Positions 3,532 to 43,524 are shown, counted from the stretch's first letter. The stretch is 64,000 nt of DNA from an uncultured Candidatus Saccharibacteria bacterium (GCA_964608585.1 CAZSOL010000001.1:168290-232289); one strand, 5' to 3'. A program made the numbers and translations. Notes: generated from the sequence alone by a model not told the origin.

Positions 3532-3978
3532 TTACTTTATTGAGTCTATGCGGACTTCAAAGTATGGCTGACGGTGTCCGTATTTCTTGAAGTACTTGGA
3601 CTTCTGCTTGTAGTGGATAACATCCACAGTCTTGTATCTTGAGATCTTGGTGATAGTTGAGGTTACGGTAGAACCAGATACAGAAGGAGTGCCAATAGTG
3701 GCGTTGTCTCCGTCTGCCTTGAGTAGAACCTCTCTAAAGACAAGTGTATCCCCCTCCTTGTGGTCACCCAAGACCTTCTCAATCTTGAGGTTCTGACCCT
3801 CGTGGACTCGGTACTGCTTGCCTCCAGTAGTGATAACAGCAAAGACGTCCTTATTTGAGGATTTTGAGGCTTTAGGAGCTTTTACAGCCTTAGGAGCGAC
3901 CTTCTTAGATTGTTCGGCAACCTCGGCTTTTGGGGCCTTCTTTGGGGCTGATTTCTTTGCTTTTGTAGCTTCTGCCAT
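3532..3978 (-). CDS. rplU: 50S ribosomal protein bL21 with ~45-aa Lys/Ala/Pro-rich N-terminal extension
   Basis: Core FAVITTGGKQYRVHEGQNLKIEKV matches bL21. The N-terminus MAEATKAKKSAPKKAPKAEVAEQSKKVAPKAVKAPKASK is histone-H1-like low complexity. Confidence 0.85.
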   Translation of the reverse strand: MAEATKAKKSAPKKAPKAEVAEQSKKVAPKAVKAPKASKSSNKDVFAVITTGGKQYRVHEGQNLKIEKVLGDHKEGDTLVFREVLLKADGDNATIGTPSVSGSTVTSTITKISRYKTVDVIHYKQKSKYFKKYGHRQPYFEVRIDSIK

Positions 3979-3985
3979 AGGGGGT

Positions 3986-4993
3986 CTATTCTACATTAGG
4001 ACGGTCCAAAGTCAATGTATCCACCCCCGCCCCAGAGCCGGTTATACGAAGGACGTCCTTGTCTATCTTGTTTAGTTCCTTATAGCCTGTGTTGTAGTGG
4101 TTTACCACCGTACCTAGAGAGTTACCTAGCTTTTTGTAGTACTCATCATAGGTCTTGATGTGCCGGCCTAGGTCCTCCACCTTTTTTATAATCTCCTGTG
4201 CCTTCTCCTCAATTTGCAAAGCCTTAAGACCTTGAAGAACTGTCTGTAAGTATGCGAGGAAGGATGTTGGAGAGACGATGATCACTTTGTACTTGGAGGC
4301 AGCGCGCTGGACCAGAGACTCAGTCTCCTCTTGGAGAGCTCCAATCTTGTTTACGATAAGGTCGTAGTAGATAGCCTCGTGTGGGATAAACATAAAGGCG
4401 AAGTCCATAGTCCCCTTCTCTGGCCTGATGTACTTGGAGGTCTCTTGGATGCGCATCTTAAGGTCACTCACAAATAACTTTTCTAGTTTTGCTTTTTCTA
4501 CTGGGTCCTTCTCCTCCACAAGACGGTTATAGTTCTCAAGAGAGAATTTGGAGTCCACTGGTATTATCTTCTCCTTCACGAAGACGACTGCATCTGGCAC
4601 CAGTCTCGCACCATCGTCGTCTACTCCAAGCTCAAATTGCATTTCATACGACCCCGGTGGCATCACATTCTTAAGCAAGGTCTCCAAGTAGTACTCTCCG
4701 AGTACCCCTCTTTGCTTCGGGTTCTTCAAGATGTCTTGGAGGCTCTCAAGTTGCTCTGCGAAGCCAACCATCTGCTTACCTGTCTCGTCTACTCTTGTGA
4801 CCTTCTCAATAATCTCCTTGATGTTGGTGTTGACCGAACGAGAGAGCTCTTGCATCTGGTTTTGTATAAGTAGCATACCCTGCCCATCATCCTGCTTCTC
4901 CTCCTTTTTACTAAGAAGCTTGAAGAAGAGTCCGATATTTATGGCCAAAATAGCTACCAAGAGGACAATTATCCAATTCATTGGTATCATCAT
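3986..4993 (-). CDS. rmuC: DNA recombination protein RmuC
   Basis: N-terminal TM helix plus coiled coil, then GEYYLETLL, FMFIPHEAIYY and VSPTSFLAYL motifs typical of the RmuC family. Confidence 0.8.
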   Translation of the reverse strand: MMIPMNWIIVLLVAILAINIGLFFKLLSKKEEKQDDGQGMLLIQNQMQELSRSVNTNIKEIIEKVTRVDETGKQMVGFAEQLESLQDILKNPKQRGVLGEYYLETLLKNVMPPGSYEMQFELGVDDDGARLVPDAVVFVKEKIIPVDSKFSLENYNRLVEEKDPVEKAKLEKLFVSDLKMRIQETSKYIRPEKGTMDFAFMFIPHEAIYYDLIVNKIGALQEETESLVQRAASKYKVIIVSPTSFLAYLQTVLQGLKALQIEEKAQEIIKKVEDLGRHIKTYDEYYKKLGNSLGTVVNHYNTGYKELNKIDKDVLRITGSGAGVDTLTLDRPNVE

Positions 4994-19684: not shown

Positions 19685-20893
19685 TTAGTTCTTTAAGAGC
19701 CCTACCAAGGCCTTCTCATCCATCTCACTCCTCTCGCCAGTCTTTCTATCCTTAATCTCAAACTTACCTCCCTCCACACTCTTCTTGCCTACAATAATCT
19801 GAGTAGGAATACCCAAAAGATCTGCCTCAGCAAACTTCTCACCAGCACTTACCTCTCTATCATCAAGGAGCACCTCCACCCCATCTCTTACTAACTTATC
19901 ATAAAGTTCCTTAGCCTTCTCATCTTGTCCAATAGAGAGTATATGGGCACGGAATGGAGCAATGGATACAGGCCAGATTATGCCCTTATCGTCCGAAAGT
20001 ACTTCTGCTATCGTACCCATAACACGAGCTGGACCGATACCGTATGAACCCATAAAGACTGGCTTACTATCACCATTTTCATCCTTATAGGTTAGGTGTG
20101 GGTCAGAGAACTTGGTCCCAAGAGTAAAGATGTTGCCCACCTCTACTGCCTTGGCTTCCCTGCCTTCTCCACCAATTTCTTTGTTTACCGCTTCCTTCTT
20201 ATCCTCATCAGTTATATAGATAGTGTCTTCACCAGCTTCAGTAATAGTTTGAAACTCGTGCGAAAACTTGGAGAAGCTCCCCCCAGAAGCTGTGGTTAAG
20301 TACGTCCTATCGCCTAAGCCAACTCTTTCAAAGATTTTTATATATGACTTCTTGGCTCTCTCATAAAACTCTTGATGCTCTGCTTCATCTTTAGAAAACG
20401 AGTATAAGTCCTTCATCACGAACTCTCTCGTGCGCATGATACCGCTCTTGGCCCGAGCTTCGTTCCTAAACTTTGTTTGGAATTGGTAGACAGAAAAAGG
20501 TAGGTTCTTATACGAAGAGACAAATTGCTCAAGCATGTTTGAAATGGGTTCCTCGTGGGTAAAGGCGAGACCTACCTCTCCTCCATCCTTAAGATTTGTC
20601 TTAAACCAGTTGTCTACTACGTCGTCACTCCATCTACCGCTCCTCTCCCAGAGCTCCTTCCTTTGCAAAGAGGACATGAAGATCTCTTGTCCTCCTAAAG
20701 CATTCATCTCCTCACGGATGATCCCTATGATCTTATTTAACACCCGAAGGCCTAGAGGCAAGAAGTTGTAGACCCCTGCCATCTCCTTGTTGATATACCC
20801 TGCACGTATCAATAATTCAGCATTCTTGGAAACCTCATCCTTAGGGGCCTCCTTACGAGTCTTGGTAAAAAGATGGCTCTGTAACATGGCCAT
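19685..20893 (-). CDS. proS: proline--tRNA ligase, short form lacking INS editing insertion
   Basis: N-terminus MAMLQSHLFTKTRKEAPKDEVSKNAELLIRAGYI is a typical bacterial ProRS start. Class II core plus anticodon-binding domain in only 402 aa. Confidence 0.8.
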   Translation of the reverse strand: MAMLQSHLFTKTRKEAPKDEVSKNAELLIRAGYINKEMAGVYNFLPLGLRVLNKIIGIIREEMNALGGQEIFMSSLQRKELWERSGRWSDDVVDNWFKTNLKDGGEVGLAFTHEEPISNMLEQFVSSYKNLPFSVYQFQTKFRNEARAKSGIMRTREFVMKDLYSFSKDEAEHQEFYERAKKSYIKIFERVGLGDRTYLTTASGGSFSKFSHEFQTITEAGEDTIYITDEDKKEAVNKEIGGEGREAKAVEVGNIFTLGTKFSDPHLTYKDENGDSKPVFMGSYGIGPARVMGTIAEVLSDDKGIIWPVSIAPFRAHILSIGQDEKAKELYDKLVRDGVEVLLDDREVSAGEKFAEADLLGIPTQIIVGKKSVEGGKFEIKDRKTGERSEMDEKALVGLLKN

Positions 20894-28207: not shown

Positions 28208-28818
28208 TCTATTAACTTTCTTAACTCTGGTCTTACTCTATCGGCTATAAGCTTATAGCCGGAGTCGTTGGGATGTATCGTATCATACATAAGATCTGGC
28301 TGACCAAAGACTCCATCTAAAACATCTGGTACGTACGCAGTGCCAAACTCTTCTGCCAAACGCTTGAACTCCCTGTCATGCCTGTTGCTCAGTACCCCAC
28401 TCCTCACACCAAGTAGTAGCACTACTGCTCCACGTCTCTGCACTTCTTGGATAATTTGCGAGAGATTGGAGAAGGTCTCTGTCTCCGGCACCTTCCTTAG
28501 GAAGTCGTTACCGCCGAGAAGGACTATAACCACCTTCGGATCATAAGCATCAAGCTCTTCTATACGGGCCAAGGCATCTCTTGTGGTGTTGCCACTCACT
28601 CCTAGGTTTATAACTCTCTCACCCAAGAGATCTACAAAACCACCACTGTTTGAGCCTACTCCAGCCACTAGACTATCACCAAAGGCGATAATATCTCTAC
28701 CTTGTGATGGGTAGTTAGTTATCTCCCTTTCGCCCCAAGCTAAAAGTAGCAACCCTAAGACAAGGGCTGTGACTACTATAACTAGAAGTGTTTTTTTATG
28801 AGAGGTGCTTACCAACAA
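28204..28818 (-). CDS. SGNH/GDSL hydrolase family protein, secreted
   Basis: Signal/TM, IIAFGDSLVAGVGS (block I with catalytic Ser), GGNDFL (block III) and a DxxH C-terminal block. Confidence 0.7.
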   Translation of the reverse strand: MLVSTSHKKTLLVIVVTALVLGLLLLAWGEREITNYPSQGRDIIAFGDSLVAGVGSNSGGFVDLLGERVINLGVSGNTTRDALARIEELDAYDPKVVIVLLGGNDFLRKVPETETFSNLSQIIQEVQRRGAVVLLLGVRSGVLSNRHDREFKRLAEEFGTAYVPDVLDGVFGQPDLMYDTIHPNDSGYKLIADRVRPELRKLIE

Positions 28819-29140
28819 GTTTAGTCATGTCAAACATAGAGACAGTCTTCTTGCCTCCGAAGACTACCTTTAGCTTATCATCTGCATTGATGTTCCTTCT
28901 GTTCTTTTGGTCTTGGAGCTTATTCTTCTTTATATAAGCCCAGAGCTTCTTTGTTACCTCTGTTCTTGGCATAGGACCCTTACCTATAACAAGTCCGAGA
29001 TCTGCACTTATCTTCATCGGCTTCATGAAGGCTGGATTCGCCTTTCTAACTTTCTTTTTTGTCTTAGTAACTTTTTTTGCAACTTTCTTCACGGCTTTCT
29101 TCATCACCTTCTTTGCTGTCTTTTTTGCTTTCTTTGCCAT
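28796..29140 (-). CDS. SWIB/MDM2 domain protein with Lys-rich histone H1-like N-terminal tail
   Basis: First 30 aa MAKKAKKTAKKVMKKAVKKVAKKVTKTKKKVRK. The C-terminal ~80 aa match the SWIB pattern (P..L..VIG.....R.EV.KKLW.YIK...LQD..N.R.I..D..L..VFG). Confidence 0.65.
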   Translation of the reverse strand: MAKKAKKTAKKVMKKAVKKVAKKVTKTKKKVRKANPAFMKPMKISADLGLVIGKGPMPRTEVTKKLWAYIKKNKLQDQKNRRNINADDKLKVVFGGKKTVSMFDMTKLVGKHLS

Positions 29141-29884: not shown

Positions 29885-30811
29885 TTAACCAGTTTGAGCC
29901 AACTTTTGCAAAGCCTTAGTAACGATGGGTAAGATGTCGTCGTAGAAGTTGAGGTCAAGGATGTCAGCTAGTCTAAACCACCTCACATCGTCCAAGCCCC
30001 CCTTCTCCTCCTTCTTCTCAAGAGTTAACTCTTGGTAAGGCGCCTCAGCGAGAAAGTAAGTAACCTGCTTCTTGATCTTGCCCTTCTCTGGATGGAAGGT
30101 GGTGTAGGCGTTCTCTCCCAACTTCTCCTTTATTTGTATAGGCACACCAAGCTCCTCCTCTGCTTCGCGAACAAGGCACTCCTCCTCCGTCTCCTTACCC
30201 TCAAGTTTGCCCTTAGTTAGGGTCCAGTGGCCGAAGATGTCATGGACCAGAGCAAGATACGTCTCTCCATTATCGTGTGCATAAACCACCGCGCCAGCCA
30301 ACCTCTCTAAAGGAAGCTCGGAGTCAGGGACGTTGCCGTACTTCTTCTTCGGCTTTGGTTGGTCGTCCTTACCCGGCTCACCCATTTCTCGGTACACAGC
30401 TCCAAGAACCCCGTTTACAAATCTCCCGCTAGTCTCACCACCGAAGGACTTTGCTAGCTCTATAGCTTCGTTAATAGCAACCTTAGGAGGCACCTCCTTC
30501 CTGTCAGCAAAGAGGAGCTCGGCTAGCCCCATACGCAAAATGTTTCTGTCTACTATAGATATCTTCTCTATCGGCCAGTCTGGGGCCGCCTTCTCTATGA
30601 TATTGTCTAGGTCTGTCTTCTTGTCTACTACGTTTTTGAGCAAATGCTCCATGAAGGGCTTATCTTTCGTCTCTGGAGCAAACTCCTTAGCAGTTCTATG
30701 AAAAATTTCTAAAACATCTATATCGCTCTTCGCCTTGCCAGAAGACAAGTCGAAGTCCCATTCGAAAAGCGTCTGCAATACAACGGAGCGCGAAAGATGT
30801 CTGTGTGACAT
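29885..30811 (-). CDS. nusB: NusB antitermination factor fused to a C-terminal NUDIX hydrolase domain
   Basis: Residues 1-140 are NusB-like (RSVVLQTLFEWDF...RFVNGVLGAV). Residues ~175-300 carry a Nudix box GKLEGKETEEECLVREAEEELGV. Confidence 0.7.
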   Translation of the reverse strand: MSHRHLSRSVVLQTLFEWDFDLSSGKAKSDIDVLEIFHRTAKEFAPETKDKPFMEHLLKNVVDKKTDLDNIIEKAAPDWPIEKISIVDRNILRMGLAELLFADRKEVPPKVAINEAIELAKSFGGETSGRFVNGVLGAVYREMGEPGKDDQPKPKKKYGNVPDSELPLERLAGAVVYAHDNGETYLALVHDIFGHWTLTKGKLEGKETEEECLVREAEEELGVPIQIKEKLGENAYTTFHPEKGKIKKQVTYFLAEAPYQELTLEKKEEKGGLDDVRWFRLADILDLNFYDDILPIVTKALQKLAQTG

Positions 30812-31072: not shown

Positions 31073-31540
31073 TTATTCCGGCACGTTCTCATGCAGAAGC
31101 TTGCCAGCCTCAAGCAGAGGAGCTTGATGTGTTGGATAGAGACGATGGCAAGCAGTCTCGAAGTCAACCCAATACGGAGGTGACATCCAGTCCCCATCAA
31201 TCGTCTTCTCAACCAGACGAAGTTCCCCCAGAAGCACGAAGGATGGGATGAGGAAGAAGTTCTTGGTGTGCCCAGGGATTTCCTTGATCCAGATCACTTC
31301 CGGAACGTACTCCTCAGGCAACCTGAGGTCTGTCTCCTCAGTGAGTTCACGACGTAGAGTGCCAAGCATGTCTCGATCCTCCTCCGCGTGACCTTCTTCC
31401 GTACCACCGATGAACTTCGTCTGCATCGGCTTGTGTGTGTACTTCGGATGCAGAGACTTCGTGTCGATGACAAGAAGTTCAACCATCCCATCGAACTCGT
31501 TCTCGCGATATATGATCGCGCCTGCATAACGCTCAGCCAC
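31073..31540 (-). CDS. NUDIX hydrolase
   Basis: Nudix box GGTEEGHAEEDRDMLGTLRRELTEETDL. GC content appears higher than the surrounding genes. Confidence 0.7.
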   Translation of the reverse strand: MAERYAGAIIYRENEFDGMVELLVIDTKSLHPKYTHKPMQTKFIGGTEEGHAEEDRDMLGTLRRELTEETDLRLPEEYVPEVIWIKEIPGHTKNFFLIPSFVLLGELRLVEKTIDGDWMSPPYWVDFETACHRLYPTHQAPLLEAGKLLHENVPE

Positions 31541-32200: not shown

Positions 32201-32236
32201 TAGTTAGTCGTGTACCACTATATTATACTTATAGAA

Positions 32237-35200
32237 ATGAGTAAGTTTACCCACCTACATACCCACTCCCATTACTCTCTCCTTGAGGCCCTACCCAAGA
32301 TCCCCGACTTAGTAGCCAGAGCCAAGAAGCACGGTATGGAAGCCCTTGCACTCACCGACTCAGGCAACTTATACGGTGCTATAGAGTTCTACAAAGAGTG
32401 TAAGGACGCTGATATCAAGCCCATCATCGGCGTGGATGCATACATTGCTCCAAGGACACGCCACGACAAGGAGGCGCGAGTAGATGCCTCTCGTACTCGC
32501 TTGGTCCTCTTAGTAGAGAACATGCAGGGTTATAAAAATCTTTTGAAGTTGGTGTCCCTCTCCTACCTTGAGGGCTTCTACTACAAGCCAAGGATGGATA
32601 AAGAAATACTAGGAAAGTACAAGGAAGGTCTCATCGCTATTCTCCCTTCCTTCAACAACACCGACCTTGAGGAGCAAGCTCTCTGGTACAAGCAAACCTT
32701 CAAGGACAAGTTCTTCCTTGAGATCACTCACCACGAGGAGATAGCCAACCATGAGGACAAGCAGAGAGAGCGTATAGCCCTAGCCAAGAAGATCGGAGTG
32801 CCAATAGTTGCAGGACACGACGTCTACTACCTCTCACCCGACGACAGACCGGCTCGTGAGACAGTACTCTCTATACAATCGCACCTAGGCATCGGTCGAG
32901 GGAGAGGCTTTAACGACGAGGAGGACGACTTCTCCTTCATCTCGCCTCAAGATGCAGAGAAGAAGTTCAAGAATACTCCCGAAGCAATAGAAAATGTGGA
33001 GAAGATTGTGGAGATGTGTAACCTAGAGCTCAAACTTGGTGAGTGGGTCTTCCCCAACCTTGAGATCCCTAGTGGCAAAACTGCTGAAGAGGCTCTGCGT
33101 GAGATTGTGGAAGCAGGCCTTCTAAGAAGAAAATTGGAGAAGACAAAGGAGGTGGAAGACAGGATAGAGTATGAGCTCAAAGTCATAAACGATAAGGGTT
33201 ACCCCAAGTACTTCCTTGTAGTGTCGGACCTCCTACGCTTCGCCCACGAGAACGGAATACTAACAAACATCAGAGGTTCTGTGGCGGGCTCACTCGTCAC
33301 CTACCTTGCTGGGATTACTAACGTGAACCCTCTAGAGTACAAGCTCCCCTTTGAGCGCTTCCTTAACCCAGACCGCCCCTCCGCACCAGATATAGATATG
33401 GACTTCGCCGACAACAGGAGAGACGAGGTTATTGAGTATGCTAGACAGAAGTATGGCCGAGACCACGTCGCACAAATAGGTACCTTCGGTACCATGATGG
33501 CTCGTGGCGCAGTGAGAGACGTCACTCGCGCGATGGGCTTACCCGTCTCACTCGGCGATAAGATAGCGAAGCTCATACCAATGGGAGCGCAAGGCTTCCC
33601 GATGACTATCAAGCGCGCTAAGAAGGAGAGTCCCGACTTCAAAAAACTTTATGATTCCGATCCCGAAGTCAAAAGAGTTGTAGACATGGCCGAGAAGATA
33701 GAGGGCAACGCCCGCCACATCTCGGTCCACGCTGCAGGGGTCGTCATCTCCCCCACTCCTCTCACCGACTACACAGCACTCCAGTACGACACCAAGGGAG
33801 AGCAGAAGGTCATCACTCAGTATGATATGTACTCTATAGAGGAAGCAGGTCTACTCAAATTTGACTTCCTCGGGATAAGGAACCTCTCTATCATCGCCGA
33901 TGCTATAGCTCGTATAAAAAAGATTGAGGGAGTAGATATAGATGTGGAAGAGATACCAATAGATGATAAGTTGACCTTTGAGATGCTTGCTCGTGGAGAG
34001 ACGGAGGGCACCTTCCAGATGAACGGTCAGGGTATGACGAAGGCCTTAATGGAGTTGAAGCCCACTGTCATCCACGACATCAACGTCATGGTGGCTCTCT
34101 ACCGCCCAGGGCCGATGGATAACATCCAAGAGTACATCCTAAGGAAACATGGCAAGCGACCTGTCACCTTCCTTCATCCAAAGATGAAGGACTTCTTAGA
34201 CACCACTTACGGTGTGCTCGTCTACCAAGACGACCTCCTCATGACCGCTATAGAAGTAGCTGGTTACTCGTGGGGCGAGGTGGACAAGTTCCGTAAAGCC
34301 GTGGGCAAGAAGATCCCCGAGGAAATGAAGAAGCAACACGTAATGTTTGTGGAAGGATGTCAGAAGCATGGAGGTATGAGCAAGGATAAGGCTGAGGCAC
34401 TCTGGGAGCTCTTCGTCCCCTTCCAAGGATACGGATTCAACAAGGCGCATGCCGCAAGCTACGGACATGTGGCCTACATCACCGCATACCTCAAGGCCAA
34501 CTATCCTGCTATATATATGTCAGCAGTACTTACAGCAGAAAGTGGAGATGTAGAGACTATCGGAGTAATGGTTAGGGAGTGCAAGAGGATGGGTATAGAT
34601 GTACTTCCTCCATCGGTTAACGAAAGCTTCTCACAATTTACTGTACCCCCAAGAGGAAACAAGAGTGAGAAGTATAAGATCCGCTTCGGACTTGTAACTA
34701 TCAAGAACTTCGGCCAAGGTGTCGCTACATCCATCATTGAGGAGAGGAAGAAGAATGGACCCTTCAAGTCTTTGCTAGATTTCCTAGAGAGAGTAAAGGA
34801 TAAAAATTTGAACAAAAAGTCTCTAGAGTCTCTCATCAAGGCCGGTGCCTTAGACGAGTTTGAAGACCGAGGCAAGATGCTTGCTAACCTAGACAAACTC
34901 CTCGCTTATCACAAGGAGGCAAGCTCTAAGGCGGAGCACCAAGACTCACTCTTCGGCATCTTTGAGGACAAGAGTGCCTTACCAACACTAAAGCTCGATG
35001 AGTCAGAACCTATAAAGGAGAAGGAGAAGCTCTTCTGGGAGAAGGAGCTCCTCGGCCTCTACATCTCAGGTCACCCACTTATGGAGCACCAAGAGAAGCT
35101 CTCAAAGGCCAAGGTAACGAGTGCCAACTTCAAAGACACGCCGGAGGGAGCAGAGATCATCCTTGCAGGCATCGTTGGCGAGGTTAGAAACAACATGACC

Positions 35201-35392
35201 AAGAGTGGAGAGATGATGGCCTTCGTGAAGCTTGAGGACTTAAACGGGAGCGTGGATATGGTCGTCTTCCCCCGAGTCTATGAGGAGTACAAAGAGTTCC
35301 TCCAAGGAGACCAGTGTATAGCGGTGAAGGGCAGAGTGAACAAGAGGAACGGCGAGCTCAGCTTCGTTGTGGAGAAGATAAAGTCATTATAG
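32237..35392 (+). CDS. dnaE: DNA polymerase III alpha subunit DnaE
   Basis: PHP domain FTHLHTHSHYSLLEA, then polymerase core, HhH and OB domains. The start may instead be the upstream ATG at 32210. Confidence 0.9.
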   Translation: MSKFTHLHTHSHYSLLEALPKIPDLVARAKKHGMEALALTDSGNLYGAIEFYKECKDADIKPIIGVDAYIAPRTRHDKEARVDASRTRLVLLVENMQGYKNLLKLVSLSYLEGFYYKPRMDKEILGKYKEGLIAILPSFNNTDLEEQALWYKQTFKDKFFLEITHHEEIANHEDKQRERIALAKKIGVPIVAGHDVYYLSPDDRPARETVLSIQSHLGIGRGRGFNDEEDDFSFISPQDAEKKFKNTPEAIENVEKIVEMCNLELKLGEWVFPNLEIPSGKTAEEALREIVEAGLLRRKLEKTKEVEDRIEYELKVINDKGYPKYFLVVSDLLRFAHENGILTNIRGSVAGSLVTYLAGITNVNPLEYKLPFERFLNPDRPSAPDIDMDFADNRRDEVIEYARQKYGRDHVAQIGTFGTMMARGAVRDVTRAMGLPVSLGDKIAKLIPMGAQGFPMTIKRAKKESPDFKKLYDSDPEVKRVVDMAEKIEGNARHISVHAAGVVISPTPLTDYTALQYDTKGEQKVITQYDMYSIEEAGLLKFDFLGIRNLSIIADAIARIKKIEGVDIDVEEIPIDDKLTFEMLARGETEGTFQMNGQGMTKALMELKPTVIHDINVMVALYRPGPMDNIQEYILRKHGKRPVTFLHPKMKDFLDTTYGVLVYQDDLLMTAIEVAGYSWGEVDKFRKAVGKKIPEEMKKQHVMFVEGCQKHGGMSKDKAEALWELFVPFQGYGFNKAHAASYGHVAYITAYLKANYPAIYMSAVLTAESGDVETIGVMVRECKRMGIDVLPPSVNESFSQFTVPPRGNKSEKYKIRFGLVTIKNFGQGVATSIIEERKKNGPFKSLLDFLERVKDKNLNKKSLESLIKAGALDEFEDRGKMLANLDKLLAYHKEASSKAEHQDSLFGIFEDKSALPTLKLDESEPIKEKEKLFWEKELLGLYISGHPLMEHQEKLSKAKVTSANFKDTPEGAEIILAGIVGEVRNNMTKSGEMMAFVKLEDLNGSVDMVVFPRVYEEYKEFLQGDQCIAVKGRVNKRNGELSFVVEKIKSL

Positions 35393-35401
35393 GATATACA
35401 A

Positions 35402-36640
35402 ATGTCAGACCAAAACACACAAGACCGAGATCACAAGAAGTTGGGTAAGGAGCTAGAGCTCTTCACCTTCTCCGACGCTATAGGCAAAGGTCTTCCCCTT
35501 TGGCTTCCTAAAGGGGCCACTGTTCGTCGTGAGCTTGAGCGCTTCATAGTAGATGAGGAGATAAAGCGAGGGTACCTACACGTTCGAACCCCAGATATCG
35601 CCAAACTTGACCTGTACAAGAAGTCTGGGCACTACCCAATGTATAAAGACAAAATGTATGCGCCAATTGTCATAGATGATGAAGAGTTTATGCTCCGACC
35701 AATGACCTGCCCTCACCACTTCGAGCTTTATCTCTCAAAGCCAAGAAGCTACCGAGACCTACCTATGCGTATAGCTGAGCTTGCTCAGCTCTACCGCTAT
35801 GAGCAATCAGGAGAGCTTATGGGGCTATTAAGAGTGAGAGCTTTCTGTCTCTCTGACGCTCATATTATTTGTAAGGATGAGGAGCAAGCGGTGGAAGAAA
35901 TCAGTAAAGCTTTGGACCTAATTGAATACGTAAACAGCGTTTTTAGTCTGGAAATGGGTAAAGATTACTGGTACGTACTTTCAATGGGCGACCGAGGTAA
36001 TACTGAGAAGTATTACAAAGATGATGCAGGTTGGGAGAAGGCGGAAGATCTATTACGCAATGCAATGAAGAAGCGTGGAGTGAAGTTTGAAGAAGTTAAG
36101 GATGATGCCGCCTTTTACGGACCTAAGATTGATGTGAATATGAAGAACGCAAACGGAAAGGAGGATACAGCATTTACTGTTCAGTATGATCTCTCTTCCC
36201 CTCACAGGTTTGATCTCAAATATACTGGAGAAGATGGTAAGGACCACTCAGCCTTTGTGGTACATCGCTCATCTATTGGTGCTGTAGAGCGTATCATGGC
36301 ATTCCTTATTGAGAAGTATGCTGGGGCCTTCCCTCTCTGGCTCTCACCTGTGCAAGTTAAGGTCTTGCCTATCGGTGAAGCGCATTTTGAGTACGCTAAG
36401 AAAGTCTTTGCAGAACTTAAGGAAGCTGGTATCCGCGCAGAACTCGATGAGTCCAATGAGAGCTTGGGCAAGAAGATAAGGAACGCCAAGACGGAAAAGG
36501 TCTTCTACACCCTAGTCATAGGCGACAAGGAGGTCGCAGACAACCAAGTGACTGTGGAAGGTCGCGAGGAAAAACTCGGCACAATGTCAGTCGACGAATT
36601 TATATCAAAAGTTAAGGAGGAAGTTAAACGTCGAGTGTAG
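35402..36640 (+). CDS. thrS: threonine--tRNA ligase, catalytic core plus anticodon-binding domain only (no TGS or editing domains)
   Basis: Begins RDHKKLGKELELFTF, equivalent to the catalytic-domain start of canonical ThrRS. Class II motifs and the C-terminal anticodon-binding domain are present. 412 aa versus ~640 canonical. Confidence 0.85.
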   Translation: MSDQNTQDRDHKKLGKELELFTFSDAIGKGLPLWLPKGATVRRELERFIVDEEIKRGYLHVRTPDIAKLDLYKKSGHYPMYKDKMYAPIVIDDEEFMLRPMTCPHHFELYLSKPRSYRDLPMRIAELAQLYRYEQSGELMGLLRVRAFCLSDAHIICKDEEQAVEEISKALDLIEYVNSVFSLEMGKDYWYVLSMGDRGNTEKYYKDDAGWEKAEDLLRNAMKKRGVKFEEVKDDAAFYGPKIDVNMKNANGKEDTAFTVQYDLSSPHRFDLKYTGEDGKDHSAFVVHRSSIGAVERIMAFLIEKYAGAFPLWLSPVQVKVLPIGEAHFEYAKKVFAELKEAGIRAELDESNESLGKKIRNAKTEKVFYTLVIGDKEVADNQVTVEGREEKLGTMSVDEFISKVKEEVKRRV

Positions 36641-41089: not shown

Positions 41090-42340
41090 ATGACTATCTA
41101 CGACATCATTATGTATGTCTGGCTCTTCGTCTCGCTCTTCTTCGAGGTCTTTTTGCTTATAACCTACTTTGAGATAAGAGAGGAGCTAAAGAGAGAGAGG
41201 GCTCTCTTAGACTCCGGTCCAAAGAGTTTCCCCTCGGTAACAGTTATCGTCCCTTGCTACAACGAAGAGAGCACTGTGATAAAAACAGTAGAGTCCCTCC
41301 TGTCTCTTGATTACCCCAAAGACAAGTTGCAGATACTTATTGTTAACGATGGGTCTACAGACAACACCTTAGACATCGTCTTAAGTCGGTTTAAGAACCA
41401 CGAGCAAATAAAGATCCACCATAAGGAAAACGGTGGCAAGCACTCTGCTCTCAACTTCGCCATAAGTCATGCAGAGACCGAGCTTATAAGCTGTCTAGAT
41501 GCAGATTCCTTTGTGGAGAAGGAGACTCTAAAGAGGATGATCCCCTTCTTTGAAAACAGAGAGACGATGGCCGTCATCCCTTCGGTAAAGATATGGGAGC
41601 CTAAGAGCATACTCCAACATATACAGAAGGTTGAGTATAGCTGGGGGATCTTCCTAAGACGCCTACTCTCCTCTCTCAATGCCCTTTATGTGACCCCAGG
41701 GCCCTTCTCAATCTTTAGGACCAAGGTCTTCAAAGAGCTTGGTGGTTACAAACACGCCCACCATACCGAAGATATGGAGATGGCAATGAGGATGCAGAAA
41801 AATGGATACAAGATTGTTAATTCTCACAGCGCCTTCGTCTACACTGTTGGTCCAGAAAAGCTCAAAGGCTTGTATAAACAAAGAGTCAGATGGACGTACG
41901 GTTTCCTCAATAACGTCATAGACTACAAAGATATGTTCTTCAACAAGAAGTTTGGCAACATTGGCCTACTGATCTTACCTGTAGCTACAGTCTCTGTCTT
42001 TGCCATTATCTATATGTCTATCATGGGAGTGTTAGAAGTGTTCAACAGGATTGGAGAAGAATATCTAAGGTACGAGGCTGTCGGCTTCACATACTCACTT
42101 CCAAGTTTTGGCTCTATAAACTGGTTTACCATAAACCTTGGAGCACTCTTCTTCATCTCTCTGACGATCCTCTCTCTAACCATGTTCATAATCTATCTAT
42201 CACTCAGGCTCTCTGATGGTAAGTTCAAGTTTACTCGCGGGATCCTCTACTACTTCCTCGTTTATATCTTTATTGTCCCTCTCTGGCTTACCAAGGCCAC
42301 TTATAGTACTATCTCGAGGCAAAGCATTACTTGGAGATGA
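41090..42340 (+). CDS. family 2 glycosyltransferase, processive (cellulose/chitin/PNAG-synthase-like)
   Basis: DGSTDNT, DAD and QRVRWTYG (QxxRW) motifs, with TM helices at both ends. Start chosen at ATG 41090; the track ORF starts at a TTG. Confidence 0.75.
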   Translation: MTIYDIIMYVWLFVSLFFEVFLLITYFEIREELKRERALLDSGPKSFPSVTVIVPCYNEESTVIKTVESLLSLDYPKDKLQILIVNDGSTDNTLDIVLSRFKNHEQIKIHHKENGGKHSALNFAISHAETELISCLDADSFVEKETLKRMIPFFENRETMAVIPSVKIWEPKSILQHIQKVEYSWGIFLRRLLSSLNALYVTPGPFSIFRTKVFKELGGYKHAHHTEDMEMAMRMQKNGYKIVNSHSAFVYTVGPEKLKGLYKQRVRWTYGFLNNVIDYKDMFFNKKFGNIGLLILPVATVSVFAIIYMSIMGVLEVFNRIGEEYLRYEAVGFTYSLPSFGSINWFTINLGALFFISLTILSLTMFIIYLSLRLSDGKFKFTRGILYYFLVYIFIVPLWLTKATYSTISRQSITWR

Positions 42341-43032
42341 TAGACAACAAGAAATACCTATTTGCCTTCCTAATAACTGCCTTTATCTTTGGGACAGCGG
42401 TCTTTATATCTAACTCTATATCAAACAAGAGGCTCCAAGCCATCAAAGACATCCAAGACCAGCTATCCTTAGACATCTTGGCCTCAGAGACTCAGTCGGC
42501 ATTACTTGAAGAGACTTCTTGCAAACAGCTAAATGGTAACGTACCAGTATCCAAAGCTCTTGCTGAGATAGCCGAGAGACTTGAGGCTGCAGAAGAGCAA
42601 AGAGGAGGAGGTGACGAAGACTTACAAGCTCTAAAGAAGCAGTACTTCTTACTTGAGATACAAGACTACTTGTTTATGAAAAGGGTGGCGGAGAAGTGTG
42701 GTATATACAGCACCTTCATACTCTACTTCTACTCAAGCGAGGAGGAGTGTAGAGACTGTACAAAAATGGGTTACGTCCTAACCTCACTTAGAGAGATCTA
42801 TCCAGATCTTCGTATATACTCCTTTGACTACAACATGGACTTAGAAGCTTTACATACTCTAAGATCCATATATAACCTAGAGGAGACCCTGCCAGCCCTT
42901 GTGATAAATGGTGACCCATACTACGGCTTCAGGTCTATGGAGGAGCTTGTAGAGTCCGTCCCTGCCCTCTCCCGCCTAACAAAGAAGGAGGACACCCCCT
43001 CTTCCACTTCAACCAATTCTCAAGTAAGATAG
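42337..43032 (+). CDS. membrane-anchored protein with CxxC motif (possible thioredoxin-like fold)
   Basis: ATGA overlap with the GT2 stop, an N-terminal TM helix, and EECRDCTKMGY. Function unknown. Confidence 0.45.
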   Translation: MIDNKKYLFAFLITAFIFGTAVFISNSISNKRLQAIKDIQDQLSLDILASETQSALLEETSCKQLNGNVPVSKALAEIAERLEAAEEQRGGGDEDLQALKKQYFLLEIQDYLFMKRVAEKCGIYSTFILYFYSSEEECRDCTKMGYVLTSLREIYPDLRIYSFDYNMDLEALHTLRSIYNLEETLPALVINGDPYYGFRSMEELVESVPALSRLTKKEDTPSSTSTNSQVR

Positions 43033-43039
43033 GTTTCGC

Positions 43040-43115
43040 GCCACCTTAGCTCAGTTGGTAGAGCAACGCTTTTGTAAAGCGAAGGTCCTCGGTTCAAGTC
43101 CGAGAGGTGGCTCCA
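43040..43115 (+). tRNA. tRNA-Thr (anticodon TGT), CCA encoded
   Basis: Acceptor GCCACCT/AGGTGGC, D-arm GCTC-AGTTGGTA-GAGC, anticodon loop TTTGTAA, T-arm CTCGG-TTCAAGT-CCGAG, discriminator T followed by CCA. Confidence 0.85.
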
Positions 43116-43116
43116 A

Positions 43117-43524
43117 TTATTTAGAATCCTGATTCTCCTCTAGGACTTCGTCTATCCTTCCTTCCCCCTGTTTTTCCGAAATGTTTTTAAAGTATTCGGA
43201 GAGACCGTCTTTCTTCTTCAGGAACTTTGACCCTCTGATGTCCCCCACATGTCTTTGGAGTCGCTCCTTAAGCAAGGCAGTAACTTTGTTTAAAAGATTC
43301 TTACTCCTCAGTGGAAGCTGGTTTGTTAAGTAGATATGCCCTCTTTCCTTCCACTCAGAGTACTTGTGGGCAAAGTCTAGAGTAGCGTTCCTCACTCTTT
43401 CATCACCCAAAGACACTAGCTTTAGAAATAGGGGCTTCCTCTTCTTACTATCCTCAATCATCTTGGCACCAACAAGAGCTACGATGATCAACCCAGATAT
43501 TACAAAAGTAATAGGTAGAAACAT
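43117..43524 (-). CDS. hypothetical membrane protein (135 aa)
   Basis: One N-terminal TM helix and a basic cytoplasmic domain; no recognisable domain. Confidence 0.4.
   Translation of the reverse strand: MFLPITFVISGLIIVALVGAKMIEDSKKRKPLFLKLVSLGDERVRNATLDFAHKYSEWKERGHIYLTNQLPLRSKNLLNKVTALLKERLQRHVGDIRGSKFLKKKDGLSEYFKNISEKQGEGRIDEVLEENQDSK

Follow-up and report, generated by a model that had tools for sequence, protein, structure and literature searches.

Here we describe a threonyl-tRNA synthetase (ThrRS) gene, thrS, carried by a 64,000-nucleotide stretch of bacterial DNA (GCA_964608585.1 CAZSOL010000001.1:168290-232289, deposited as an uncultured Candidatus Saccharibacteria bacterium; the whole 64-kb stretch is called the window below). 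Both N-terminal domains of ThrRS, namely N1 (TGS) and N2 (the Ser-tRNA-Thr hydrolase), are entirely absent from its 412-aa product. The host belongs to the Zambryskibacteria-like group of the Paceibacteria, within the Patescibacteria or candidate phyla radiation (CPR). Judged from sequence, the gene is best explained as encoding the housekeeping ThrRS of the organism, naturally reduced to a minimal form, and we put the probability that editing has been lost without a dedicated trans-acting factor at roughly 0.6.

A ThrRS reduced to the catalytic and anticodon-binding domains

The gene and its domains are arranged as follows.

35402..36640, + strand: thrS, 412 aa, ATG start; catalytic core and anticodon-binding domain only
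35402..36319, + strand: class II catalytic domain, residues ~1-306 (Pfam tRNA-synt_2b at residues 93-306)
36353..36622, + strand: HGTP anticodon-binding domain, residues 318-407 (Pfam PF03129, E 1.1e-24)

A Pfam search of the 412-aa protein found neither TGS (PF02824) nor tRNA_SAD (PF07973, with its HxxxH and CxxxH motifs). The NCBIfam thrS equivalog model TIGR00418 matched with 506 bits (E 1.6e-151), above its cutoff of 383.65, and the match spanned only model positions 166-564 out of 565. Among solved structures, residues 238-640 of S. aureus ThrRS (645 aa) aligned with the window enzyme (E 1e-125, 423 bits), and a multiple alignment placed its start point at the E. coli RDHRKIG motif, at about residue 241. 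A preliminary description of this DNA had proposed that the enzyme consists of the catalytic and anticodon-binding domains and that it begins at the catalytic-domain start with the motif RDHKKLGKELELF. Pfam, TIGR00418, the structure matches and the alignment all agree with the first proposal, and the second is essentially right, the motif occupying residues 9-21. By these matches, the product is a true ThrRS and not a canonical one built of N1, N2, core and anticodon-binding domain.

The dnaE gene closes the N-terminal boundary

Upstream, thrS is limited by an intact gene for a DNA polymerase subunit.

32210..35392, + strand: dnaE (DNA polymerase III alpha), 1060 aa, intact; upstream limit of thrS
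35390..35401, + strand: junction sequence, with the dnaE stop codon TAG (35390-35392) and the Shine-Dalgarno-like site AGGA (35391-35394)

The AGGA site overlaps the dnaE stop and lies 7 nt ahead of the thrS ATG. The spacer from stop to ATG is 9 nt, so that the earlier statement that dnaE ends 10 nt upstream and leaves no room for an extension needs hardly any correction. An upstream in-frame open reading frame (ORF) encoding N1/N2, also raised in the preliminary description, was not found: a hidden Markov model (HMM) built from 117 N-terminal regions detected no N1/N2-like sequence in the six frames of the 64-kb window (best E 0.22). A mis-called start or a hidden upstream exon is ruled out by the position of dnaE together with this lack of N1/N2 similarity in any frame.

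The TAGGAT junction, which combines stop codon and ribosome-binding site, is conserved in relatives, and rnhB-dnaE-thrS synteny is kept in nearly all of the 18 GTDB species loci described below. From this arrangement, thrS is probably translationally coupled to dnaE and is probably also co-transcribed with it. No leader RNA or T-box was found before thrS, the only Rfam matches in the window being two tRNAs. At one related locus (L005; here and below, L and P numbers are our handles for related sequences), an IS110-family transposase-like ORF (3644..4897, - strand) splits the otherwise tight dnaE-thrS junction. In the window, dnaE and thrS share a reading frame and are parted only by TAG plus 9 nt. 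A DnaE-ThrRS readthrough fusion was considered and rejected; the shared frame is coincidental, because the spacer measures 9 nt in the window, 12 nt in L011, 5 nt in L020 and 10 nt in L017.

The truncated enzyme is fixed across a large clade

The best 120 homologues among 5.8 billion proteins were all 387-426 aa long, showed 76-100% identity to the window enzyme and carried the same two Pfam domains. The names attached to them were Zambryskibacteria, Parcubacteria, Patescibacteria and Minisyncoccota, and every named Zambryskibacteria ThrRS among the top matches was ~410 aa long. Such proteins are already in public databases, where they are annotated simply as threonine--tRNA ligase. When one genome per GTDB species was scanned for related loci, 18 were returned, and thrS was truncated in 16 of them, with the frame closed at most ~50 codons upstream of the equivalent start. 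The remaining two loci belong to a Lysinibacillus and to L012, which encodes a 602-aa CPR enzyme. One of the 16 (L018) carries a 60-residue nonsense leader, and its start is probably wrong. These results show that the truncated ThrRS is fixed across a large clade.

An ordinary active site and its tRNA substrate

The zinc ligands C103, H154 and H288 (E. coli C334, H385 and H511), the motif-2 and motif-3 arginines R132 and R297, and the threonine/ATP contacts D152, Y239, K242, T259, Q261 and W211 are kept in the window ThrRS and in 42/42 truncated homologues. The E. coli residues used for this comparison are those that we take to be the zinc, threonine and ATP ligands in the E. coli structure. 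The clade differs at only three otherwise conserved columns (R245K, G457D and R609E in E. coli numbering), none of which is among the substrate-binding positions checked. The last corresponds to E386 (36557..36559) in the anticodon-binding domain, a glutamate where E. coli has R609 and where 91% of N2-bearing ThrRS have arginine.

The substrate is encoded in the same window.

43040..43115, + strand: tRNA-Thr(UGU), with G1-C72, C2-G71 and an encoded CCA; 6.4 kb downstream of thrS

By its residues and domains, the enzyme is fully equipped to make Thr-tRNA-Thr and has no element that is known to hydrolyse Ser-tRNA-Thr. The two ORFs flanking the tRNA gene (42331..43032 and 43117..43524) were considered as deacylases and rejected, being small, with a hydrophobic N-terminal stretch, and not deacylase-like. 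Read by eye, that stretch is a likely membrane anchor in both.

No replacement for the editing domain in the window or beside related thrS genes

The preliminary description had called for a search for free-standing ThrRS-ed or N2-like homologues, and none was found in the 64-kb window or within 10 kb of the relatives' thrS. A Pfam search of ~70 window ORFs gave no tRNA_SAD, tRNA-Thr_ED, YbaK-type, D-Tyr-deacylase or TGS family, and the ten ORFs flanking thrS in relatives gave none of these five either. Within 10 kb of thrS in the 18 related species, no known editing-factor family was present outside thrS itself. The N1/N2 HMM, applied to 301 kb around thrS in these species, matched only the two full-length thrS genes.

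Database searches with the N2 domains of two CPR relatives (P0122 and L012) returned many short tRNA_SAD proteins. As candidates for free-standing N2 proteins these were rejected, since all five that were inspected on longer contigs (L002, L003, L022, L023 and L024) lie directly upstream of an ORF for a ThrRS core. They are frameshift-split or damaged full-length thrS genes from low-coverage or error-prone assemblies, and the adjoining cores are ~40-42% identical to the window enzyme. In L003 (3211..5011) the frameshift falls in an A-rich run at 3x coverage, and in L022 (2816..4557) and L023 the neighbouring dnaE is likewise fragmented. Frameshift-split thrS entries thus mimic free-standing editing domains in protein databases.

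A probable stepwise loss of the N-terminal domains

To find relatives of the truncated group, 1.84 billion cluster representatives were searched exhaustively with HMMER. The nearest longer relatives are ~600 aa long, their match to the truncated enzymes beginning near residue 190, and they show N2 in several states.

P0122, P0123, P0125, P0129 and L012: tRNA_SAD present, no TGS; HxxxH and CxxxH intact
P0127 and P0128: one or both N2 motifs mutated
P0124 (526 aa): internal deletion, the central part of N2 gone

A neighbour-joining tree nested the window clade inside this N2-bearing CPR group. In the same tree, roughly ten more lineages of the 150 nearest clusters have a truncated ThrRS, and a 413-aa protein of the mollicute Ca. 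Hepatoplasma represents one of these. In L012 and L022, the thrS found at the same dnaE-thrS-gyrB locus encodes N2; the window gene is therefore the positional orthologue and shed its 5' portion at that locus. That N2 decays while still fused points to stepwise decay rather than relocation. The proposed course is one of reductive evolution, in which TGS would have been lost first, N2 would then have decayed and finally been deleted. This loss may be one instance of a more general shedding of synthetase editing modules by the genome.

Two neighbouring synthetases also lack editing domains

The window holds two further reduced synthetases, and together with ThrRS (no N2) they make three editing-less synthetases within 22 kb: a ProRS that lacks INS and a PheRS that has neither a beta subunit nor B3/4.

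19685..20893, - strand: ProRS of bacterial type, 402 aa; the ~170-aa INS editing domain replaced by ~10 residues
39873..41024, - strand: single-chain PheRS, 383 aa; alpha core (Pfam tRNA-synt_2d) fused to FDX-ACB

The ProRS aligns to residues 1-227 and 397-553 of a 567-aa S. aureus-type ProRS, skipping INS. It resembles the INS-less bacterial ProRS of the R. palustris type (PDB 2I4L), and equally short INS-less enzymes occur in six relatives (L006, L011, L013, L017, L020 and L021). For the PheRS, no beta subunit or B3/4 editing domain was found, and its gene has no pheT next to it. Among solved structures, it matches human mitochondrial PheRS best (PDB 3CMQ; 207 bits, against 127 for bacterial alpha subunits), which has the same architecture of alpha core plus FDX-ACB. 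It scores below the NCBIfam cutoffs both for pheS_mito (239 against 258) and for the PheS-related (mystery) ligase SrmL (257 against 300). The single-chain form is also present in L016, L019 and L022, and a mitochondrial-type PheRS in a bacterium may merit a study of its own.

The pattern varies within the clade. L022 has a single-chain PheRS and an N2-bearing ThrRS, while L004, whose ThrRS is truncated in the same way, has canonical pheS-pheT. These mixed patterns indicate that the synthetase reductions are independent events in a reduction-prone lineage. In L004 (15934..19044, - strand), pheS encodes 255 aa and pheT 780 aa, with an NlpC/P60 peptidase domain between B3/4 and B5. Directly downstream of the single-chain PheRS gene, the window has an NlpC/P60 ORF (39295..39876, - strand) that is 40% identical to this insert, a likeness that hints at a rearrangement history connecting the two PheRS forms.

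Different histories of the two ThrRS domains

Several genomes that stand as close to that of the window as L005 does carry a truncated thrS that is only 45-50% identical overall at the same dnaE junction. L016, for example, shows 75%, 87% and 78% identity to the window in dnaE, gyrB and PheRS, respectively. Identities to the window enzyme, taken by domain, are as follows.

L015-L021: catalytic domain 37-44%, anticodon-binding domain 68-72%
L013 (third catalytic type): catalytic domain 44%, anticodon-binding domain 73%
L012, P0122 and P0123 (more distant, with the window-type catalytic domain): catalytic domain 66-70%, anticodon-binding domain 38-50%

All evidence for this mosaic comes from distance methods only, and the trees of the two domains conflict strongly. 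In bootstrapped neighbour-joining of the catalytic partition, the two groups defined by catalytic type appeared in 200/200 and 194/200 replicates, and the lineage group was never recovered. With the anticodon-domain partition, the catalytic-type groups were found in 0/200 replicates, and the Zambryskibacteria-like enzymes were united in 116/200. By these comparisons, the anticodon-binding domain is lineage-specific in type, and relatives with a catalytic-domain identity of only ~40% have it too. The simplest reading is that the catalytic domain was replaced in situ at least twice, while the lineage kept its own anticodon-binding domain and the N2-less boundary. These discordant domain histories suggest that synthetase domains are exchangeable as cassettes at a fixed chromosomal locus.

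In two pairs of N2-bearing enzymes, L012 (9440..11248) with L022 (2816..4557) and P0122 with L003 (3211..5011), the N2 domains are more alike (65-66%) than the cores (43-45%). Most other pairs compared show the reverse, and E. coli with Lysinibacillus shows the same direction more weakly. The higher N2 identity would fit core swapping, and it would also fit core types that evolve at very different rates.

Loss of editing compared with other explanations

ThrRS proofreading is usually described as universal in bacteria (PMC4267643). If editing has indeed been lost here, the enzyme would charge tRNA-Thr normally and would be unable to deacylate Ser-tRNA-Thr in cis. Serine misactivated at the zinc site would then either reach the tRNA, with the cell tolerating the outcome, or be removed in part as Ser-AMP by the synthetic site. 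The cell would most likely tolerate more frequent Ser-for-Thr errors, kept in check only by how selective the zinc site is and perhaps by Ser-AMP hydrolysis, with no dedicated trans-editing protein, and the organism probably translates with reduced quality control. We regard loss as the best reading because no N1/N2 or other editing-factor family turned up in the window or beside thrS in the 18 related genomes, because N2 is seen decaying in place in relatives, and because the window also holds the INS-less ProRS and the single-chain PheRS. That such a loss can be tolerated is plausible, since growth of E. coli suffers little when its ThrRS is editing-defective and replacing Thr by Ser is a mild change (PMC10057733), and since host-restricted bacteria with reduced genomes commonly lose editing, as stated in passages of PMC7373986 and PMC10057733 that cite Melnikov 2018.

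Several points weigh against this reading. The search covered the window and the relatives' thrS loci, and a trans factor or a second thrS may lie elsewhere. The substrate-binding residues checked show no clade-specific change that would point to relaxed or tightened specificity, and no active-site signature of compensation was found. Moreover, L004 combines the same truncated ThrRS with a pheT that has a strong B3/4 domain, so that editing loss is not uniform across the synthetases of the clade. A wider claim, which we hold tentatively and judge to be somewhat unlikely, is that an entire lineage within the Paceibacteria does without post-transfer clearance of Ser-tRNA-Thr, in cis or in trans, with INS and B3/4 also absent and the N2-less state kept through at least two catalytic swaps.

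The preliminary description had offered two possibilities, editing lost or editing supplied in trans, and this pair fits everything found here. It omits a third, known from yeast mitochondrial ThrRS, whose synthetic site hydrolyses Ser-AMP before transfer (PMC4267643).

Editing in trans is the strongest competitor, and we consider it unlikely. A free-standing deacylase encoded elsewhere in the genome would clear Ser-tRNA-Thr, as ThrRS-ed does for ThrRS-cat of Crenarchaeota; candidates would be an AlaX-type tRNA_SAD protein, an archaeal-type ThrRS-ed (DTD-like fold) or a member of the ProXp/YbaK family. The precedent is real, in that crenarchaeal ThrRS-cat is likewise an aminoacylating ThrRS without an editing domain (PMC7373986). 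The searched window makes up about a quarter of a 238-kb contig and less of the genome, and the truncated state has been stable over a long evolutionary time, so fidelity could be secured otherwise. However, such a family is found neither in the window nor up to 10 kb from thrS in the 18 related species, the two closest CPR N2 domains used as queries retrieved only fragments and frameshifted full-length genes, and no stand-alone N2 was seen beside anything but a ThrRS core. The decay of N2 while fused in relatives is also unlike fission into a trans factor. The crenarchaeal system is defined by its ThrRS-ed partner; because no such partner was found in the window or in the flanks of thrS in relatives, we do not file the window ThrRS under the split ThrRS-cat/ThrRS-ed system.

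Less likely again, and compatible with loss, is intrinsic compensation, in which Ser-AMP would be hydrolysed in the synthetic site or a tighter site would exclude serine. Yeast mitochondrial MST1, the 'minimalist' ThrRS (PDB 3UGQ), has the same architecture of core plus tRNA-binding domain only, and it possesses both tRNA-independent and tRNA-dependent pre-transfer editing (PMC4267643). In addition, yeast mitochondrial PheRS and human mitochondrial LeuRS offset lost editing by tighter selection (PMC4267643). However, the window ThrRS has no special relationship to MST1, which scores 202 bits, against 423 for the bacterial S. aureus ThrRS and 282 for cytosolic ThrRS, and whose domain loss was independent. 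MST1 is organellar, also reads the unusual tRNA-Thr1 and has had its pre-transfer editing shown experimentally. The zinc, threonine and ATP ligands of the window enzyme are all ordinary, and the three clade departures fall outside the substrate-binding positions checked. An E. coli deltaN-ThrRS with the same boundaries, studied by Dock-Bregeon et al. in 2000, reportedly aminoacylates normally but mischarges serine, releasing Ser-tRNA-Thr.

Duplicated ThrRS genes occur in bacteria, and the truncated gene could be an auxiliary or resistance copy, with a full-length thrS elsewhere performing the housekeeping and editing. Its catalytic domain has clearly been exchanged horizontally, as is often the case for synthetases that are antibiotic targets. 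We nevertheless find a paralogue very improbable, given that the gene sits at the conserved rnhB-dnaE-thrS(-gyrB) position, where L012 and L022 have their N2-bearing thrS, that it scores well above the thrS equivalog cutoff and that the named Zambryskibacteria enzymes share its length. Finally, error-prone assemblies of related bacteria do contain thrS genes that are split by frameshifts (L002, L003 and L022-L024). Even so, the chance that the start was mis-called, that a frameshift or a break in the assembly conceals the 5' end of the gene or that the gene is a pseudogene is negligible, with an intact 1060-aa dnaE just upstream, no N2-like sequence in any frame, the same boundary in 120 homologues and 16 independent genomes, and every catalytic residue conserved.

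Relation to known systems

Three known enzymes share the architecture of the window ThrRS, namely yeast MST1, crenarchaeal ThrRS-cat and the engineered E. coli deltaN-ThrRS (residues 242-642; PDB 1EVK/1EVL/1FYF/1KOG). The last has identical domain content, a nearly identical N-terminal boundary and the same zinc ligands. Residues 9-411 of the window enzyme align end to end with the 401-aa 1EVK (chain residues 1-394), starting at the RDH+K motif. The E. coli protein is a laboratory truncation, ~40% identical to the window ThrRS, whereas the latter is natural and clade-wide.

Host-restricted bacteria provide a second parallel, that of a reduced genome in which several synthetases lack editing modules (here ThrRS, ProRS and PheRS). 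Editing-deficient synthetases of such bacteria, Mycoplasma and others, are reportedly the subject of work by Li et al. 2011 and Melnikov et al. 2018. The present case differs in that it concerns Patescibacteria/CPR and in that whole domains are deleted rather than point-mutated. In the full texts searched, no paper connected lost synthetase editing, or mistranslation, with CPR/Patescibacteria, and we found no paper on a minimal bacterial ThrRS or a single-chain bacterial PheRS. The natural minimal ThrRS is conceptually anticipated by known editing-less synthetases, yet it is solid, clade-wide and experimentally tractable.

Other genes in the window

Three further ORFs of the window are recorded here as side observations. 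A 308-aa ORF (29885..30811, - strand) fuses a NusB domain to a C-terminal NUDIX hydrolase domain. Near this gene, a stand-alone ORF (31073..31540) shows a NUDIX-box-like motif by eye and has no Pfam match. A 114-aa protein (28796..29140, - strand) carries a SWIB/MDM2 domain (100 bits), a domain that is mainly eukaryotic, chromatin-associated and uncommon in bacteria.

Significance of a natural minimal ThrRS

The findings describe a whole environmental lineage in which the one ThrRS that can be seen has no editing domain; a neighbouring ProRS and PheRS are likewise reduced. The window enzyme is a natural deltaN-ThrRS for testing whether the synthetic site alone excludes serine. If there is no trans factor, CPR bacteria would join mitochondria and mollicutes in relaxed aminoacylation quality control. 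That would bear on how far symbionts with small genomes can lower the fidelity of translation, and on the interpretation of the proteomes predicted for them. If the wider claim above is true, abundant environmental bacteria would have a natural 'statistical proteome' that is neither organellar nor mollicute, and domain-cassette exchange would take place inside an essential synthetase gene.

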